Shown here piece after piece: positions 1 through 7,479 of a stretch of 10,392 nucleotides of DNA. The stretch's first letter is position 1. Every line of letters begins with the position of its first letter. Origin of the DNA: a virus (Duplodnaviria > Heunggongvirae > Uroviricota > Caudoviricetes). The DNA lies in the IMG/VR virus record IMGVR_UViG_2534681697_000028, positions 1 to 10,392 of that record. One strand, 5' to 3'. The position numbers and the translations under genes were made by a program. The notes under the pieces were generated by a model. That model searched no databases, was not told where the DNA came from, and saw only the letters and a list, made by a program, of their open reading frames with translations.

Positions 1-300
1 TTACCGCCGTAAGTGCTCCGGCTTCCTCCACTGGTAAGTATTTTTCGCGCTCTCCCTCCGTTGTTGAGAACGGCGACGATATGCCAGCAACTCAAGGACT
101 CTTGTTCGTATGTTGCGCATATCCACGCCGTTAAGCTCAATACCGTCACGGCGCATCACCTCAGCCACCACACGCGCGTAATTTTCAGCGGTGACGCTGT
201 CCGGCTGCGTGGCCACCTGTTTGCCTGTTGCCTGACAGATTCCGGTAATACGGCGGATTACTTTCAGTAGTTCGGCGTCGGTCATGGTTATGGTTTCCAT
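1..300 (-). CDS. hypothetical protein (99-aa ORF); probably the C-terminal part of a ~125-aa HTH protein that starts at GTG 385 in another frame
   Basis: Complete ORF with stop at 1-3. Its own ATG at 300 has no Shine-Dalgarno, whereas GTG 385 (track ORF 185..385) has GAGGTG 4 nt upstream and encodes an HTH-like N-terminus (MATQTEVARHLSLTDRQLRRLQKLFP). The two frames meet at a G5 run (307-311); removing one G fuses them in frame. Confidence 0.5.
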   Translation of the reverse strand: METITMTDAELLKVIRRITGICQATGKQVATQPDSVTAENYARVVAEVMRRDGIELNGVDMRNIRTRVLELLAYRRRSQQRRESAKNTYQWRKPEHLRR

Positions 301-463
301 AGTGATGGGGGAACAATTTCTGTAATCTGCGAAGCTGGCGATCGGTCAGACTCAAATGCCTGGCAACTTCAGTCTGAGTAGCCACTGTTCACCTCGCCCA
401 AAAATCTCCCCTCATGCGTTTTAAACATGCATCTTGCGAACAACTTTATGAAACGCGGCATAT

Positions 464-560
464 ATGTCCGGTTTGAGTGTTCAATTTTTGCGCATGTCCG
501 GTTCGCAGAAAGCGCATTTCTATATTTTTCAAATGGTTAACCTTCAGAGAAACCGGACAT
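464..560 (-). promoter_or_regulatory. three copies of a 10-bp motif ATGTCCGGTT (464-473, 494-503 direct; 551-560 inverted) upstream of the gene starting at 385; candidate operator array
   Basis: Exact 10-mer repeated three times in about 100 bp between the capsid-operon terminator and the next gene start. The third copy sits inside the hairpin gaaacc-ggacat-ggtttc (548-565). An 8-bp palindrome ggttaacc lies at 535-542. Confidence 0.45.
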
Positions 561-641
561 GGTTTCCGAAAAATTTTCATAAATAGTGAAATTCTGCGCC
601 GCTCCCGCCCCGTGGCAGGCCACCCCACCGGAAGGACCCGC

Positions 642-665
642 AAAAAAAGCCGGATTTCTCCGGCC
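642..665 (-). terminator. rho-independent terminator of the capsid operon
   Basis: Stem gccgga/tccggc (649-654 / 659-664) with loop tttc, preceded on the plus strand by A7 (642-648), which is a U-run on the minus transcript. It lies directly after the stop of the 137-aa gene at 671. Confidence 0.7.
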
Positions 666-670
666 TTTTC

Positions 671-1084
671 TCAGATGGTTTTCAGTATGCGATCGATTTC
701 GCCGTCATCACCCTGATATCTGCCATCGTATGCCATGCCAGGGCTTACGGCCTGCGGGCTGTGCATGTCCATAAAGTTTTCAAAGGCTGCGGTAAGCTCC
801 GGCGCAACCTTCGGGCGTTCCTGCTCTATGGTCATGTTCAGGATTTCCCGGGCATTATCGACGCTAATACATGGCACGTTTGCCATTGCACGTAACAGCG
901 GCTGATAGTCGTCAGATTCATGAAGCGCCATAATCGCATCAGTGCGCGGCTTGTCCTGCTCTTCCAGTTTGTTAAGTTGATATATAGCCTCGTAGGTTGA
1001 TAAACCTCTGTCCGCCATTGCCCGCGCTTCGGCTTTAAATTTACTCGCTAGCGGTAGCGCCATGATAGCTTCATTGATTGCCAT
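671..1084 (-). CDS. hypothetical protein, 137 aa, last gene of capsid operon
   Basis: ORF with SD AGGGGG 4 nt upstream of ATG 1084; starts 10 nt after the stop of the upstream gene; followed by the terminator. No family recognised by eye. Confidence 0.6.
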   Translation of the reverse strand: MAINEAIMALPLASKFKAEARAMADRGLSTYEAIYQLNKLEEQDKPRTDAIMALHESDDYQPLLRAMANVPCISVDNAREILNMTIEQERPKVAPELTAAFENFMDMHSPQAVSPGMAYDGRYQGDDGEIDRILKTI

Positions 1085-1096
1085 CGTTCCCCCTGC

Positions 1097-1387
1097 TTAT
1101 CGCACCAGTGGCTGAACGGATACGCCAGAACCCGCAAAAGCGGCGCATTTTTTCGCGTCGGTGTCGACGCTCTCGGGCCAGTTAACGGCGGCGATATTAA
1201 ATATCCCCGTCTTGTAACACTGTGCTGATTTCTGCTTTGACGTGTCCACGGGGTACGCCGTCAGATAAACAGCCTTGCCAGATTCCTGACCATCCCACGC
1301 CTTAAACTCGCCATTGTCCGCCAGCATCAGCGGAAAAATGTACCAGCGTCGTGGCAACCTGCTGTGTGCCTGCATATAACTCAACAT
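1097..1387 (-). CDS. hypothetical protein (96-aa ORF); likely true start at ATG 1400 in another frame (apparent frameshift at the A5 run 1334-1338)
   Basis: ATG 1387 has no SD. ATG 1400 lies 11 nt after the capsid gene stop, has a strong SD GGGAGA, and encodes MGTPYVELYAGTQQVATTLVHF before stopping after 32 aa. Removing one base of the A5 run joins it in frame to the 96-aa ORF. Confidence 0.5.
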   Translation of the reverse strand: MLSYMQAHSRLPRRWYIFPLMLADNGEFKAWDGQESGKAVYLTAYPVDTSKQKSAQCYKTGIFNIAAVNWPESVDTDAKKCAAFAGSGVSVQPLVR

Positions 1388-1411
1388 ATGGAGTGCCCAT
1401 AGAATCTCCCG

Positions 1412-2467
1412 TTAACCAATTTTCACAGTAACAAATTTGCGGATATCTGCCGGAACCGGCTGTGGTGCGCTGTGCGTCTGCACGTACTCAATCGCCGGAT
1501 CGCCGCTCTCAATCCAGTTTTTCGGGTAGTACATGTTTTGCGTTGCGCCCGTTCTTACCGCTTCCGGATCCATAATCGCGCCATAGGCCACCAGACCTTT
1601 ATTGCTGGTGTTGCCTAGGACAAGCAAATCAGGCTCAAGGAAATATTTTTCGGTGCCGTCGCTGTCGGTGTATTTGCCGGAATAGACGATAAGGGCCAGA
1701 TCACCCAGATAGCCTTTAAAGCTCACCACTTCGCCCAGGTTTTTACACGCCAGCTCTGCGGCGGATTCTGAACCACGGGAAAGATCGTACAGCTCGCGGA
1801 ATTTTTTAAAGCTACGTAAGGTGCGCCATACGTCAGCGCCCATAATCATGACGTTGGCGGGGCAGCTGGCCTGTTCGGCGTATAGCTCGATGTCATCTGT
1901 CGGATCATGCGTCTCTTTATTCTGCTCAGACCATTTTTTTCCTGGCCCCTGATGGACAATGCAGTTTGCCGGCATATTCCAGTCGATTTCATAGCGTTCT
2001 ATGCCTTCGCCTTCAATGATGTTTTTTCCGGTCGTGACCGCATTCACTGCCAGCCATTCCACACGCGCTTTAATGGCGTTTATCTGGCGGCGCATGTTGC
2101 CAGTAATGAGGCGCATACGTCGCCAGGTGGGGTCGTTAAGCAGTGCCGGATCTTCTCCAGCCATGCGCATGATGGTTTTTGATGGATCGATTTCGTGTTT
2201 GGGTTTCATGTAGCCAGGGCGGATAGTGCTTGTTTCGTACCCTTTATCACGCTGAACCTGGCTACCCACCACAGGCGAACAAAACGCCGACATGGTGACT
2301 TCTTCAATGTCCAGGGTATCCAGCATGACATCTTGTGTGTTGAAGGTTGCTACTTTCGGGAAAAACAGCGTGGTAAACAGCGGACTGAATTTAAATTCCG
2401 GGATATCCCCGCGATTCAGGTACGCGAAAAGCTGGTTAGTGTTAAGTGCCGTTGCTTTGTCTGCCAT
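1412..2467 (-). CDS. phage major capsid protein, lambda gpE family
   Basis: 351 aa, close to lambda gpE length (~341 aa as recalled), with recognisable gpE-like blocks: KFSPLF..FF, PGYMKPKHE, DPTDDIE, FRSFKKF, RGSESAAE, YKGYLGD..IVYSGKY, VLGNTS..GL.AYG, YPKNW..GDPA.EY. Start overlaps the upstream ORF stop (TAATG). Confidence 0.9.
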   Translation of the reverse strand: MADKATALNTNQLFAYLNRGDIPEFKFSPLFTTLFFPKVATFNTQDVMLDTLDIEEVTMSAFCSPVVGSQVQRDKGYETSTIRPGYMKPKHEIDPSKTIMRMAGEDPALLNDPTWRRMRLITGNMRRQINAIKARVEWLAVNAVTTGKNIIEGEGIERYEIDWNMPANCIVHQGPGKKWSEQNKETHDPTDDIELYAEQASCPANVMIMGADVWRTLRSFKKFRELYDLSRGSESAAELACKNLGEVVSFKGYLGDLALIVYSGKYTDSDGTEKYFLEPDLLVLGNTSNKGLVAYGAIMDPEAVRTGATQNMYYPKNWIESGDPAIEYVQTHSAPQPVPADIRKFVTVKIG

Positions 2468-2673
2468 TATTCACCCCCATGAGTCTGATTCATGCCAAGC
2501 GCCGCACGTAAATAGGCGCGTACCTGCCAGCCTGTTGACGGCTCAACCATCGCCAGCGGATCAAGTCCTGCCGCAATGCCCGCTTTTACGTTCTGCTGGT
2601 GGCGTTCCTTGAGCGCCTCCACGATATCGGGGCTTATGTAAACTGTCACCCCGCCTTTTTTCTCTTCTGTCAT
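2467..2673 (-). CDS. hypothetical small protein, 68 aa, first gene of capsid operon
   Basis: ATG 2673 with SD GAGGAA upstream; stop overlaps the capsid gene start (translational coupling). N-terminus GVTVYISPDIVEALKER has a strand-helix pattern; no firm family. Confidence 0.6.
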   Translation of the reverse strand: MTEEKKGGVTVYISPDIVEALKERHQQNVKAGIAAGLDPLAMVEPSTGWQVRAYLRAALGMNQTHGGE

Positions 2674-2700
2674 AGTCAGAAATTCCTCTTCGACTTAAAA

Positions 2701-2732
2701 AATTATAACTGGATGTACATCCAGTTATAATT
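2701..2732. promoter_or_regulatory. 32-bp perfect palindrome aattataactggatgtacatccagttataatt overlapping divergent -10-like hexamers; candidate operator of the capsid operon promoter
   Basis: Verified base by base as a perfect inverted repeat. TATAAT on the plus strand at 2732-2737 and on the minus strand at 2735..2730. Centre lies ~44 nt upstream of the start at 2673. Confidence 0.6.
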
Positions 2733-2835
2733 ATAATCATAGTTGCATTTTGCGCAATAGAATTGAGTTGCGTTGCAAATTATGAAATGATTTACGGCAA
2801 CAGTAGTCACCATGCTGTTAACCTCGTAAGCAAAA

Positions 2836-2874
2836 GCCCGATAAGCTTCCTCCTGTACTTATCGGGCTTTTTTT
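2836..2874 (+). terminator. rho-independent terminator (plus-strand T7 tail; may also act on minus strand)
   Basis: Stem gcccgataag / cttatcgggc (2836-2845 / 2858-2867) followed by T7 (2868-2874); on the minus strand it is followed by TTTTG. Confidence 0.6.
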
Positions 2875-2880
2875 GGGTAC

Positions 2881-2902
2881 AAAAAGCCGGATTTTCTCCG
2901 GC
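2881..2902 (-). terminator. rho-independent terminator after the SSB-tail gene
   Basis: Stem gccgga/tccggc (2886-2891 / 2897-2902) with A5 (2881-2885) on the plus strand, a U-run on the minus transcript. Near-identical in sequence to the hairpin at 649-664. Confidence 0.6.
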
Positions 2903-2910
2903 CTGTGCGT

Positions 2911-3280
2911 TCAGAACGGAATATCATCACCGTAGGGGTCATCGTCTCCCGCTGGTGGCTGATTACCCTGTGTGCCTGTGGTTTTGCGTCTGTTCCCGCT
3001 AGGGCGTGCCGCTCGGGCACTGATTACGCTGTCGGCAATAACCTGATAACCCTGCCGCGTTTCCCCGTTCTGTCAGCGTGGCAAAGTTTGCCGCTGCTGT
3101 GGTCATGAATGCGCTTATCAGGTCGGGATGTTCCTTCGCGTATCCTTCCCCCGCGTGGCGGTCTATCGTTCTGATTGCCACCTTTAAAGCGTGCTCTGTC
3201 ATGTCTAACGCGCGATATTTCGGTTCTGTTCTGTCTCTGCGTTTTTTGAGTGATTTATTAAATTTTCCTGAAGTGTGCAT
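2911..3280 (-). pseudogene. small protein with SSB-like C-terminal tail (Gly/Gln/Pro-rich linker ending DDDPYGDDIPF), apparently frameshifted near the C4 run 3063-3066
   Basis: 93-aa ORF (3280..2999) in one frame. A second frame with no start codon is open 3072..2914 and encodes ...RPSGNRRKTTGTQGNQPPAGDDDPYGDDIPF-stop, resembling the E. coli SSB tail (...DFDDDIPF). Removing one base of the run fuses the two. The N-terminal part does not look like an OB fold. Confidence 0.55.
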
Positions 3281-3327
3281 GTTTATTTTTACCCCCTCGT
3301 TTAAAAAGTTTTGAGTTGTGCCTCCCC

Positions 3328-3555
3328 TTGTCTACCTTATCTACCTTGCTGGCCCTCATGCCAGTAATGGCGCGGCTTTCAGCGGGGTAGAGTGCTTTTA
3401 TCCACTATCTACCCCGTGTCTACCTCCCTGTCTGATTCAGGTAAAATCAGGTAGAGAGGGTAGATAGTGGGTAGACAGTAAAAAAAAGCTGTCTACCTAA
3501 CTTAATGTACTGAATTAAATGTATTTTCCTTTACTCAGGTAGACAGGGTAGACAG
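3328..3555. repeat. iteron array, putative origin of replication (consensus GGTAGACAG / CTGTCTACC)
   Basis: At least 11 copies of the core TCTACC/GGTAGA in both orientations (e.g. 3331-3336, 3340-3345, 3408-3413, 3419-3424, 3492-3497; 3386-3391, 3450-3455, 3459-3464, 3470-3475, tandem 3538-3546 and 3547-3555) plus an AT-rich stretch at 3478-3530, immediately 3' of the primase gene. Confidence 0.75.
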
Positions 3556-3568
3556 CAATTACAAAAAA

Positions 3569-5323
3569 TTATAAAAACGCGTCGCACTCGTCTGTTGTTA
3601 TTGCGTTAGTCTGCGTTACCCCCTTAACTTTCCGCGTAATATATTCATGTCCGTAAACTTTTGCGGCAGGCTTCATAGCCTTGCCAAAGTCATTTACGTT
3701 TAGCGGTTTGCTCCTGCCTGCGTATGCCATAAACGCCAGATAGACGCGGTAAAGGCTGTTCCTGGTCGTGTACTTCACTGAATCACCACCGCCACCCATC
3801 ATCAGGCCGCGCGCTTCCTCCAGAAAATTCAGGAACTGGCAAAACTCAATAACCGGATCCGTCTGTTGCTTTATTGCCAGTGCTTCATCACCGTCATGCT
3901 GTTCCAGTAGTAAAGCCCGTGCCTTCTCAGGGTCGGTAAAGTTCGCCAGCAATCGGCGGATAATAACGGGGATTTCAGCCGCAATCTTTTCCGGTAGCTC
4001 CCTGTCTTTTTCGGCCTCACTGACGATATTGTCGAAACGGAAAATCACGCGACGACGTGCCACACCTCCGGCCCGTTCGGTGAATATCATCGGGTTGTTG
4101 TCGGTCGCCAGCACCACCGCCCTGATTACCGCCGTGAAACGCTTTTCATATTTCGGGTTAATTTCCACGGGGTCGCCGCCCGTGATTTTCTTGATGCCCG
4201 TTCCTTCGCCTGTATATTTCGGCTGGTCAGCCAGGACGATAAGACGACTCCCGACAACCTGCGCACGTCCACCAGCATCATCAAGCGATGTCATTTCAGC
4301 GCTTACCGTGTTCTGTTTCCCTGCCAGAAGGCTGGCTATGTGTGTGAATGTACTTTTACCGCTCCCGCCGTCTCCGGTGGCCTCAATAAACATCTGCCAG
4401 TCGTACCGGTTCGCCATAATCATGTAAAGCGCGGCACATATGCGCATCATCTTGCGCGGGTCTTTTCCGGCTGCGTGATCAAGCCATTTATGAAAGTTTG
4501 GCGCGTTGTCGCGGATATTCTCCCCTGGTGCTGGTGGCGTGTACTCAATGCCGTTGTGCGTGGTGATCCAGTTCTCCGGCGTGTGCGGGGAAAATTCCCC
4601 CGTTTTCAGGTTAAGCACACCATTAGTGAACGGTAGCAAATCACTGGACGGCTCGCCCATCGGGTCAGCAATAACTTTTAACGCTTCAACGGCGTTATTA
4701 ATTGCCCGCTTGCTGAATGTGGCCCCGTGTTCTGAATAAACCGCCACCATTTCGCGGCTCAGTTCCATTGTGCTGACCGGACACCATATCCCGCCGCGCC
4801 ATACGTGAACGATTTCACTTTCCGGATGCACACAAACGCCATCAAATCGACCAGCAAGCATCTGTGCGCGCTCACTGTCTGCCATCTGCGAAAGTTGCGC
4901 CTTTTGCTTTACCGGAAGCTCAATGACCAGACCATCAGAAAGATTCTGGCGTTCACGGGCCAGATATTCGCGCCAGTTCTGCACCTCCTGGCCGTGCATA
5001 CCCTCAAGATAAAAATTTGCATCCTGTACACCTGCCGCCGCCAGCTTCTGACCAATCGCCTTGATCATTACAGGCTCAAGATGTCCGGCTCTGTATATGC
5101 GTGCTGATTTTCTGCCATCCGGCACAATTTGCAGATTATCCAGTTCGGATAGCTGCTGCTCTCCAAGCCACACAGGAGGCTCATTATCTCCGGCTGTACG
5201 CGCGTCATGTTCCTGCCACTGTTTCGCGTGTGCCCAGGCATCACTACCCGCAAAGATAATTACCTCTGTGTCTTTGTGTTTTATTCCGCGTGGCTGTTTT
5301 TTTACGTTCGGTGCCAGTTTCAT
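3569..5323 (-). CDS. P4-family primase/helicase (D5-like SF3 NTPase) replication protein
   Basis: 584-aa ORF with Walker A GDGGSGKST and downstream VLADQP / VLATDNNP motifs typical of phage/plasmid primase-helicases. SD AGGGG; start overlaps the upstream ORF stop (ATGA). Sits beside the iteron origin. Confidence 0.88.
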   Translation of the reverse strand: MKLAPNVKKQPRGIKHKDTEVIIFAGSDAWAHAKQWQEHDARTAGDNEPPVWLGEQQLSELDNLQIVPDGRKSARIYRAGHLEPVMIKAIGQKLAAAGVQDANFYLEGMHGQEVQNWREYLARERQNLSDGLVIELPVKQKAQLSQMADSERAQMLAGRFDGVCVHPESEIVHVWRGGIWCPVSTMELSREMVAVYSEHGATFSKRAINNAVEALKVIADPMGEPSSDLLPFTNGVLNLKTGEFSPHTPENWITTHNGIEYTPPAPGENIRDNAPNFHKWLDHAAGKDPRKMMRICAALYMIMANRYDWQMFIEATGDGGSGKSTFTHIASLLAGKQNTVSAEMTSLDDAGGRAQVVGSRLIVLADQPKYTGEGTGIKKITGGDPVEINPKYEKRFTAVIRAVVLATDNNPMIFTERAGGVARRRVIFRFDNIVSEAEKDRELPEKIAAEIPVIIRRLLANFTDPEKARALLLEQHDGDEALAIKQQTDPVIEFCQFLNFLEEARGLMMGGGGDSVKYTTRNSLYRVYLAFMAYAGRSKPLNVNDFGKAMKPAAKVYGHEYITRKVKGVTQTNAITTDECDAFL

Positions 5324-5619
5324 TTTTTACCCCTGAATACGTTAAGCATCTTTTTTATTTCCTGAATATTGGCGCGTGCTTTCTCCCTGCTGGTGGGCAC
5401 GTTACGCGGTACGGCCTGCACAAGAGAAAAATCACGGTCGAACTGATAAACAGGCATCACGCAATCATATTCGTAGCCTTCACGACGGTAGGTTACGCGC
5501 CGTTCCTCCACGCCCTTAATTATTACCGTGCCGCCGTACTTATCGCGGTAAATATCCCCGCGCATGAATTTAGTGCGAGTTTTGCCGCTGGCAGTTAAGC
5601 CAGGATATTTAAGTTTCAT
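5320..5619 (-). CDS. hypothetical protein, 99 aa, translationally coupled to the primase
   Basis: ORF with SD GGAGAA 9 nt upstream of ATG 5619; stop overlaps the primase start. Positionally analogous to small accessory genes upstream of the P4 alpha gene, but no sequence identification. Confidence 0.6.
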   Translation of the reverse strand: MKLKYPGLTASGKTRTKFMRGDIYRDKYGGTVIIKGVEERRVTYRREGYEYDCVMPVYQFDRDFSLVQAVPRNVPTSREKARANIQEIKKMLNVFRGKK

Positions 5620-5624
5620 TATTT

Positions 5625-5858
5625 TTATTCTCCGGTGTGGGGCGCTTTATACTGGTCGTGTAATGTCTCTATTTCCTGCAACTCATTTATTACAGACTCA
5701 AGAAGCGTTATTAATGCCGTGACAATCCTTGATTTCTGTTTATCACGCTCATTATCGCCAAATGTTTCCAGACACATTTGCAATATTTCCAACATATTTT
5801 CACTGTGAGAAAGTGCAAGAAATGCGCGGTCTGTTATTTCAATGTAAATATCACGCAT
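5625..5858 (-). CDS. hypothetical protein, 77 aa, first gene of the replication operon
   Basis: ORF ending 6 nt before the next gene's start; weak SD (GGGG). Function unknown. Confidence 0.5.
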   Translation of the reverse strand: MRDIYIEITDRAFLALSHSENMLEILQMCLETFGDNERDKQKSRIVTALITLLESVINELQEIETLHDQYKAPHTGE

Positions 5859-5894
5859 AACCCCGTTACTTTATTCGTACCCCTTATAATGGGG

Positions 5895-7440
5895 TGTTAG
5901 CCAGCCAGACCCGGCATGATTACTGCCCCCAGTCGTCCATGATCCGGGGGGTGATGTCACCGGGTCTGGTGGGGCGCTGGTAACCGCTAATAGGGGTCAG
6001 GTCAGGCACTTTTGCCGGGACCGTCTGTAACGTGGATGCCGGTACCTGCTCCCCGTGGTTATCTGGTTAACCCATATACAAGGGAGACAGAATGACCGAA
6101 TCCAGCGATTACGAATCCGTCCAGGTCTTTATCGGCGTTGATGTCGGTAAAGATACGCATCACGCTGTTGCCATTAATCGTTCAGGTAAACGCCTGTTCG
6201 ATAAAGCATTACCCAACGACGAAAACAAACTCAGGTCGCTAATATCTGACCTGAAACAACATGGTCAGATACTGCTGGTTGTTGATCAGCCAGCTACCAT
6301 CGGTGCGTTACCTGTCGCCGTTGCCCGCTCAGAAGGAGTCCTTGTCGGATACCTCCCTGGACTGGCCATGCGCCGCATAGCCGACTTACACGCCGGTGAA
6401 GCTAAAACTGATGCTCGTGACGCTGCCATCATTGCCGAAGCTGCCCGTACCCTGCCTCACGCGCTACGCACGCTGAAACTGGCTGACGAGCAAATCGCCG
6501 AACTCTCCATGCTCTGCGGCTTCGATGATGATCTTGCCGCACAGAAACGCAGGCCAGCAACCGTATCCGCGGCCTTCTGACCCAGATACATCCGGCACTG
6601 GAGCGCGTTCTCGGTCCGAGACTTGAGCACCCGGCGGTACTCGATCTTCTCCAGCGATATCCCTCACCAGAAAAACTCGCTTCGCTGGGTGAGAAGAAGC
6701 TGGCAGCCCAGCTCTGCAAACTTGCGCCTCGTCTGGGTAAACGCCTTGCAGCAGACATAGCTCAGGCACTGGCCGAACAAACCGTCGTCGTTCCCGGCAC
6801 GAATGCCGCTGCCGTAGTACTGCCACGTCTGGCACTCCAGCTCATCACGCTGCGTAAGCAAAGAGACGAGGTGGCGCTTGAGGTAGAACAGCGAGTTCTT
6901 GCTCACCCTCTTTACCCGGTCCTGACCAGTATGCCCGGAGTCGGTGTCAGGAGCGCAGCCAGACTCCTCACCGAGGTCGCCTGCCGCGCCTTCGCCTCTG
7001 CCGTACATCTCGCTGCTTATGCTGGCCTTGCGCCGGTAACTCGGCGATCCGGCTCGTCAATACGCGGTGAGCATCCCCCGCGACGGGGTAATAAAGCTCT
7101 CAAACGGGCGTTGTTCCTGTCGGCCTTCGCCGCGCTCAGGGATCCGCTCTCCAGGGCTTACTACACCCGCAAAATGAGTCAGGGAAAACGACACAATCAG
7201 GCGCTTATCGCCCTGGCGAGACGACGCTGCGACGTTCTGTTCGCCATGATGCGCGACGGGACTTTTTATACCCCGCAGGGGTCATAACATGCTTGACAAC
7301 TTAATAGGGGCACGTTACGCCCCGCCATAATGCGGGTATGGGTAGGTTTACGGACACAAAAAAACCGCATATCGGAATGTAAGCGGCTGTCCGCTTTGCT
7401 ATTCAGGCTGTCAAACCCGGTCGCCATGTGGGCGACGGGG
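5895..7440 (+). mobile_element. IS110-family insertion sequence (boundaries approximate)
   Basis: Contains the IS110-type transposase reading frame 6092..7287 with non-coding flanks. The family lacks terminal inverted repeats, so the ends cannot be fixed by eye. Confidence 0.7.
6092..7287 (+). pseudogene. IS110-family transposase (DEDD-type recombinase), split by an apparent 1-nt deletion in the A-run 6545-6547
   Basis: N-terminal ORF 6092..6580 carries the DEDD/RuvC-like start FIGVDVGKDTHHAVAI. The conserved continuation ...TQASNRIRGLLTQIHPALERVLGP... and the C-terminal MPGVGVRSAARLL...AAYAGLAPVTRRSGSS block are in a frame open from 6532 to 7287. SD AGGGAG precedes ATG 6092. Confidence 0.85.
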
Positions 7441-7479
7441 GAAGAATACAGCCCCACGGTAATTTTTTGCAAGTTGTTT

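Follow-up and report, generated by a model that had tools for sequence, protein, structure and literature searches.

The window (the whole stretch of 10,392 nucleotides analysed here, positions 1 to 10,392 of IMG/VR record IMGVR_UViG_2534681697_000028) resembles in its gene layout a Gram-negative phage-inducible chromosomal island (PICI), a type of phage satellite. Its main genes lie on the minus strand, with the exception of an IS110 fragment on the plus strand; pri-rep, encoding a P4-alpha-like initiator, is intact, and the minus-strand genes further along encode a lambda-E-type major capsid protein, a head decoration protein, a DUF4222 protein, an Ash/Icd-like ORF, and a tyrosine integrase, the last being cut by the window end. 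An array of short repeats in both orientations (iterons) occupies the gap between two minus-strand genes (3569–5323 and 2999–3280). The features of this region are as follows.

2999–3280, minus strand: 93-aa ORF after the origin (ORF list)
3281–3312, minus strand: ribosome-binding region of that next gene, GAGGGGG and then the ATG at 3280, outside the origin proper; near-invariant in seven ori variants
3328–3555, no strand assigned: whole iteron array, very probably the core of a PICI origin; 11 of the 12 cores in the window, 95.5% identity to the EcCICFT073 ori
3329–3346, plus strand: two iterons, TGTCTACCT and TATCTACCT, 9 bp apart; cores invariant in the seven ori variants
3359–3383, plus strand: G+C-rich box GCCAGTAATGGCGCGGCTTTCAGCG, not an iteron; conserved in the variants and recurring at other origins
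3386–3391, minus strand: lone iteron core GGTAGA, invariant in the seven variants
3399–3406, plus strand: degenerate iteron TATCCACT; variants L002 and L003 have a full iteron at the position aligned with it
3406–3425, plus strand: two iterons, TATCTACC and TGTCTACC, 11 bp apart (core matches, variant alignment)
3450–3478, minus strand: three iterons, GGTAGAG, GGTAGATA and GGTAGACAG, 9 and 11 bp apart (core matches, variant alignment)
3490–3498, plus strand: lone iteron TGTCTACCT beside the AT-rich segment (core match)
3498–3537, no strand assigned: AT-rich segment, putative DNA unwinding element (composition, duplex stability)
3538–3555, minus strand: tandem pair of GGTAGACAG, the iterons nearest to the pri-rep stop; within primer EcoCFT073-pri-4c (PMC6092414)
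3569–5323, minus strand: pri-rep, 584-aa P4-alpha-like SF3 helicase/initiator (Pfam D5_N, DUF5906, Pox_D5)
3587–3862, minus strand: region coding for the C-terminal winged-helix domain (aa 488–579), putative iteron reader (PDB 1KA8 match)

Iteron array downstream of pri-rep

Of the 12 copies of the core hexamer (TCTACC/GGTAGA) in the window, 11 fall within 3331–3552, five on the plus strand and six on the minus strand. Base composition predicts 0.11 copies per 228 bp, against the 11 seen; in 200 shuffles of the window, the mean was 2.66 copies and none reached 12 (0/200); and the binomial probability of 11 out of 12 sites falling inside the array span is 7 × 10−18. Read in the same orientation, the copies yield the consensus c-T-[G/A]-TCTACC-[T/C], with a repeat unit of 8–10 bp, and adjacent cores are spaced 9 or 11 bp apart. 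Nine cores (3331–3497) and two further cores (3538–3552) flank an AT-rich segment of 40 bp (3498–3537, 77.5% A+T). Of all 30-mers in the intergenic region, the least stable falls into this segment; it ranks 8th among the 10,363 of the window, 3.2 SD away from the mean. The two cores nearest to the initiator gene belong to a perfect tandem pair (GGTAGACAG GGTAGACAG, 3538–3555), with a gap of 13 nt between the end of the last iteron at 3555 and the pri-rep stop codon (3569–3571). The preliminary description of this DNA had reported at least 11 core copies in both orientations, a perfect tandem pair, and an AT-rich stretch, all directly downstream of the helicase gene (the 584-aa ORF), and each of these observations was borne out.

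Other signals were also considered. A candidate DnaA box (TTATCCACT, 3398–3406) was rejected, being at chance level and not kept in the ori variants; this 9-mer overlaps the degenerate iteron at 3399–3406, and TTATCCACA, allowing at most one mismatch, has 2 matches in the window versus 2.17 expected. No RNA family was placed in the array region by an Rfam scan of the window, and a scan of 2900–3800 for promoters and terminators found neither a sigma-70-like promoter on the gene strand nor a terminator. A reading of the array region as a packaging (cos) site was likewise rejected, because the tested cos sites of EcCICFT073 map at a distance of about 3.3–4 kb, close to the opposite end of the island. 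Elsewhere in the window, 569–601 (region 565–640) matches sequence flanking one of the tested cos sites of EcCICFT073 and is followed by no canonical cosN, and a cosN-like sequence (GGGCGGCGACCC) is found inside pri at 4170–4181 on the minus strand, as well as in the CFT073 pri gene.

Pri-Rep initiator

Residues 141–579 of Pri-Rep align at 40% identity with residues 324–762 of P4 alpha, a stretch that takes in the helicase and the C-terminal part, and residues 488–579 match the origin-binding domain of P4 alpha (PDB 1KA8, E = 7 × 10−7), the solved winged-helix domain by which alpha is described to bind DNA (PMC2777425). The identity between this protein and the Pri-Rep of EcCICFT073 is 94.5% over the full length and 99% in the C-terminal domain. 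The N-terminal part of about 140 residues (region 4859–5323, minus strand; residues 1–155) is the most variable among alleles (42–94% identity), and its 140 residues yielded no Pfam family, no similarity to the primase domain of P4 alpha, and only a weak PHROG match. Since no primase domain is recognisable in Pri-Rep, 'primase' is an annotation label and not a shown activity, and the use of the term in the preliminary description is to be corrected accordingly. The helicase core matches a 7OLA chain named 'DNA primase' (E = 1.7 × 10−15), which we take to be the primase-helicase of a staphylococcal island. A single-sequence structure model of Pri-Rep (pLDDT 39) was unusable.

Conservation of the cores and relatives in other genera

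In an alignment of seven ori variants from E. coli and Shigella, some of them only about 75% identical, 55 of the 66 core positions are invariant, as compared with 43 of the 170 non-core positions of the array (Fisher p = 2 × 10−16). The invariance of the cores, set against the drift of the spacers, points to selection on the hexamers and their positions and not on the intervening DNA. Arrays located 3′ of the initiator gene are also found in other genera, built from other units: TTCACC (nine copies) in Pectobacterium and TGTTCA (11 copies) in Morganella, both with an AT-rich segment alongside, and GCACTG (seven copies) in Aeromonas. The helicase part of the Morganella initiator is 59% identical to that of the window versus 44% to that of P4, whereas its C-terminal domain is closer to the P4 group (50%, as against 33% for the window); the Morganella iterons, too, are P4-like. 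As judged from these sequence comparisons, it is the C-terminal domain, and not the helicase, that iteron type follows in other genera. Together with the 1KA8 homology, this supports the earlier suggestion that the C-terminal domain of the initiator would be the part that binds the iterons. In Morganella morganii H1r (L009, 436–2862 and the next 300 bp), the initiator thus has the look of a domain mosaic, with a helicase nearest to that of the E. coli PICI protein and with a binding domain and iterons (TGTTCAT) nearest to those of P4.

Identity with the EcCICFT073 origin

The array region is 95.5% identical to the segment located 3′ of pri-rep in E. coli CFT073, with all 11 cores kept (11/11). 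Over 362 aligned columns the identity is about 96%, only few of the differences falling within the array; neither the AT-rich segment nor the tandem pair has changed. In CFT073 the locus is flanked by phoQ and roxA, and its gene order is that of the window, including the capsid and decoration genes. These two genes, c1499 and c1500, were assigned to EcCICFT073 by Fillol-Salom et al. (2018; PMC6092414), and the locus carrying them is EcCICFT073. In addition, six primers of that study (pri-3m, pri-4c, rep-1m, rep-3c, rep-4c, and rep-5m), which served for the pri deletion and the replication plasmids, match the CFT073 locus with no mismatch.

The segment downstream of pri-rep was described as the origin by Fillol-Salom et al. 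(ISME J 2018; PMC6092414), who placed three constructs in a thermosensitive vector: pJP2027 (pri-ori), pJP2028 (pri-Δori), and pJP2029 (Δpri-ori). Maintenance at 44 °C was good for pri-ori only, its differences from pri-Δori and from Δpri-ori both having p < 0.0001, and colony numbers of the Δori construct were reduced, not abolished (PMC6092414). As primer rep-3c corresponds to window positions 3565–3585 and rep-2c to about 3258–3278, the segment missing in pJP2028 corresponds to about 3258–3564 of the window and includes the whole array. The reading of the array as a replication origin, put forward in the preliminary description, is thus supported by its 95.5% identity to an EcCICFT073 segment whose deletion sharply cut plasmid maintenance (PMC6092414), and the cloning experiment proposed there has in effect already been done, because the near-identical CFT073 allele has been cloned and tested.

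The intergenic region has matches in 424 of 5426 complete E. coli genomes, all of them chromosomal and none under an annotated feature.

State of the island

The window island and EcCICFT073 have in common the array 3′ of pri-rep, the 11 iteron cores, the AT-rich segment, and the G+C-rich box. In contrast, the window island has another integrase and another regulatory region, a stop in the alpA-like gene, a truncated ssb, no perC, and an IS110 fragment. The alpA-like gene (8811–9014, minus strand) is 95.6% identical to an intact 68-aa gene of E. coli S1-CAM-02-A but its codon 11 is changed from Q to a stop, so that the activator of the island may be inactive. The 93-aa ORF after the origin (region 2914–3280, minus strand) is a fusion, the first ~64 residues of which match the small gene that usually follows the origin; the adjoining DNA encodes only residues 84–136 of SSB, the N-terminal part of SSB and perC being missing relative to EcCICFT073. 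On the plus strand, a 162-aa ORF (6092–6580) containing an N-terminal DEDD_Tnp_IS110 domain only is probably a fragment of an IS110-family element lying between the replication and regulatory modules. Rfam matches to C4 antisense RNA, isrK, and c4-a1b1 (7400–7911, minus strand), the only ones in the window, overlap a 437-aa ORF (7480–8793, minus strand) with Ash and Icd-like domains, and together they make up a P1/P7-type c4-icd-ant immunity module within a PICI. Judging from the alpA-like stop, the ssb truncation, the loss of perC, and the IS110 fragment, the island may be decaying; the origin and the initiator are intact. In an island that looks partly decayed, the origin may rarely fire in this host.

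G+C-rich box within the array

The only unexpected part of this origin is the 25-bp G+C-rich box (GCCAGTAATGGCGCGGCTTTCAGCG), which separates the first iteron pair from the iteron that comes next. Among the seven ori variants, 17 of its 25 positions are invariant, and its mean pairwise identity is 0.86 versus 0.56 in the remaining spacer DNA. The box is also present in the Aeromonas relative, whose iterons differ. Scanning IMG/VR for an exact 14-mer of the box gave 120 loci, of which 48 also match at least 7 of 11 flanking positions; nearly all of these 48 lie in arrays of repeated 7-mers, whereas the loci with at most four extra matches do not. With 0–6 mismatches, the 25-mer occurs at lambdoid, P1/P7, ColE2-like, and other origins, across which the flanks of the box are unrelated. 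At the IMG/VR loci the iterons are unrelated, and so are the initiators encoded nearby: Phage_rep_O proteins, whose gene contains the box and precedes one for a DnaB-like helicase or for a lambda-P-like protein, and a Toprim-AAA_25 protein. Among the phages whose O gene carries the box are CUS-3, Sf6, HK633, HK75, Kapi1, and many Stx2a phages. In three lambdoid contigs of IMG/VR (L076, L061, and L088), a near-identical AT-rich run (AATATAAATAATA) follows the last iteron about 75 bp past the box, and it is shared despite three different iteron types.

The box adjoins the rep gene in small plasmids, and it lies about 40 bp beyond the origin of a plasmid that we take to be ColE2-like. It is found in 1124 of 5426 E. 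coli genomes, where its contexts, among the matches listed, are unannotated DNA resembling the PICI origin, a prophage replication gene, or a plasmid of ~95–100 kb. A 19/25 match at position 7051 of P4 was judged unconvincing, as it lies inside ORF106 and not at ori or crr. Fold prediction of the box in four contexts gave no shared hairpin, and the idea of a hairpin or single-strand initiation signal was rejected, since only the plus strand of the window showed an effect (z = −2.3), through the flanking inverted iterons. A literature search by the box sequence found no paper.

At the P1/P7 oriR, the box is the G+C-rich stretch that sets the incC iterons apart from the GATC-rich repeats (19/25 match; 23/25 in the P1-like oriR of the SJ46 type), and its orientation relative to the AT-rich or GATC-rich side is the same as in the window. 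The P1 initiator RepA (annotated as RepB-family) is, however, unrelated to Pri-Rep, and the P1 box abuts the unwinding region, whereas that of the window is separated from the AT-rich segment by six iterons and 114 bp. According to Brendler et al. in 1991, the P1 stretch is reportedly a spacer, critical in length but tolerant in sequence; such a role does not explain the conservation of the sequence across replicons. In a review, the role of such G+C-rich flanks is said to remain unclear (PMC5043065).

Discussion

The results described above make it very probable that the array serves a Gram-negative, EcCICFT073-type PICI as its replication origin, an origin type that is already known and, for the CFT073 allele, experimentally tested. 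Comparison with P4 is instructive in this regard. Homology between the two initiators extends through the helicase and the winged-helix origin-binding domain (40% identity over 440 aa); octamer iterons occur in both orientations in either element, with paired copies 9 bp apart; and each element has an iteron array immediately 3′ of its initiator gene. The type I iteron of P4, TGTTCACC, shares six of eight bases with TGTCTACC of the window, the two central bases being different. The preliminary description had given this P4 iteron correctly, as the annotated P4 record confirms, and had rightly called the core of the window close to, yet distinct from, it (2 of 8 positions differ). The sole TGTTCACC of the window, at 386–393, is at chance level, the array using TGTCTACC. 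The origin of P4 is bipartite, in contrast to the single cluster of the PICI: a distance of about 4.7 kb separates ori from crr, both of which lack a G+C box. P4 alpha has an N-terminal primase region of ~320 aa without counterpart in Pri-Rep. The origin in the window works like that of P4 but departs from it in three features, namely iteron sequence, bipartite structure, and primase region. The layout of an origin next to its rep gene, which the preliminary description ascribed to P4 and PICI elements alike, holds for PICIs but not literally for P4, where the array beside alpha is crr (4291–4590 in the annotated record, directly 3′ of alpha) and ori (9086–9809) lies about 2.1 kb upstream of alpha.

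Staphylococcal islands offer a further comparison. The helicase core of Pri-Rep is related to the 7OLA chain, which is presumably staphylococcal, but DNA similarity is absent, the iterons are others, and the host belongs to another clade. The SaPI order in Gram-positive PICIs is pri, rep, and then ori (PMC6092414).

The position of crr in P4 also raises the question of whether the array might be a crr-like cis enhancer, with the true origin elsewhere in the island. Part of the array, read in the gene direction (one reverse, three forward, a gap, and two reverse), resembles in its orientation one P4 crr repeat, just as its place beside the initiator gene is that of crr. Such an enhancer would leave an origin to be found elsewhere, but neither the window nor the complete 18-kb CFT073 locus has a second TCTACC cluster, the copies outside the array numbering one in the former and two in the latter, and pri together with the CFT073 fragment alone sufficed for plasmid maintenance (PMC6092414). 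We therefore consider a crr-like role very unlikely; the PICI origin occupies the position of P4 crr, yet does the job of an origin.

We likewise see little chance that the repeats are operators for a transcription factor controlling the downstream ssb/perC/capsid operon. The array does lie directly upstream of a same-strand gene starting at 3280, and in other replicons the binding of an initiator at iterons often also affects transcription. Against this stand the negative promoter and terminator scan of 2900–3800, the homology of a domain in the neighbouring Pri-Rep to a known origin-binding domain, and the recurrence of arrays 3′ of homologous initiator genes, with an adjoining AT-rich segment in Pectobacterium and Morganella and with the array also in Aeromonas; moreover, the published Δori phenotype is a replication phenotype (PMC6092414). 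That the cluster arose by chance or is a decaying repeat without function, for which there speaks only the general caution that slippage can create short repeats, is practically negligible as a possibility and already refuted by the conservation pattern, the cores being kept while the spacers drift, in addition to the shuffle counts, the clustering probability, and the presence of the region in 424 of 5426 complete E. coli genomes.

With the array taken as the replication origin, the following mechanism can be proposed. The island's own initiator, encoded just upstream and composed of a P4-alpha-like SF3 helicase and a C-terminal winged-helix domain, would bind through the latter to the 8–10-bp iterons (CTGTCTACCY), which are arranged in both orientations and at roughly helical spacing and flank the 40-bp AT-rich segment. 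Binding of Pri-Rep as a multimer would distort the DNA and melt the AT-rich segment, where the helicase part of Pri-Rep would load itself, and the host replisome would then take over. For the CFT073 allele, the fragment and pri-rep sustain plasmid maintenance, and the loss of either sharply reduces it (PMC6092414). Beyond these functional data, we infer iteron binding, the melting site, and the self-loading of Pri-Rep, as well as the residues that would read the iteron, the start of melting, and the primer maker. By homology, the C-terminal winged-helix domain of Pri-Rep is the candidate iteron reader, and the AT-rich segment 3498–3537 is the putative unwinding element, its position being predicted from composition only.

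The G+C-rich box has no place in this scheme as it stands, and two readings of it are conceivable: a clamp or spacer passed on within a mobile origin cassette, or a site used by some common factor. We tentatively suggest, as a possibility that we would not rate as the likely outcome, that the box is a portable, initiator-independent origin element, which a shared trans-acting factor, for instance a host protein of replication or priming, might recognise, its role then going beyond that of a passive spacer or clamp.

Altogether, a published and tested type of PICI origin is widespread in E. coli, being present in 424 of 5426 complete genomes. If the tentative suggestion about the box were true, it would be an unnoticed general cis element of the origins of enterobacterial mobile elements and could explain how priming occurs with an initiator that has no recognisable primase domain. 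A functional box, occurring as it does with at least four unrelated initiator classes, would imply a shared initiation step beyond the standard model of iterons and an AT-rich segment.
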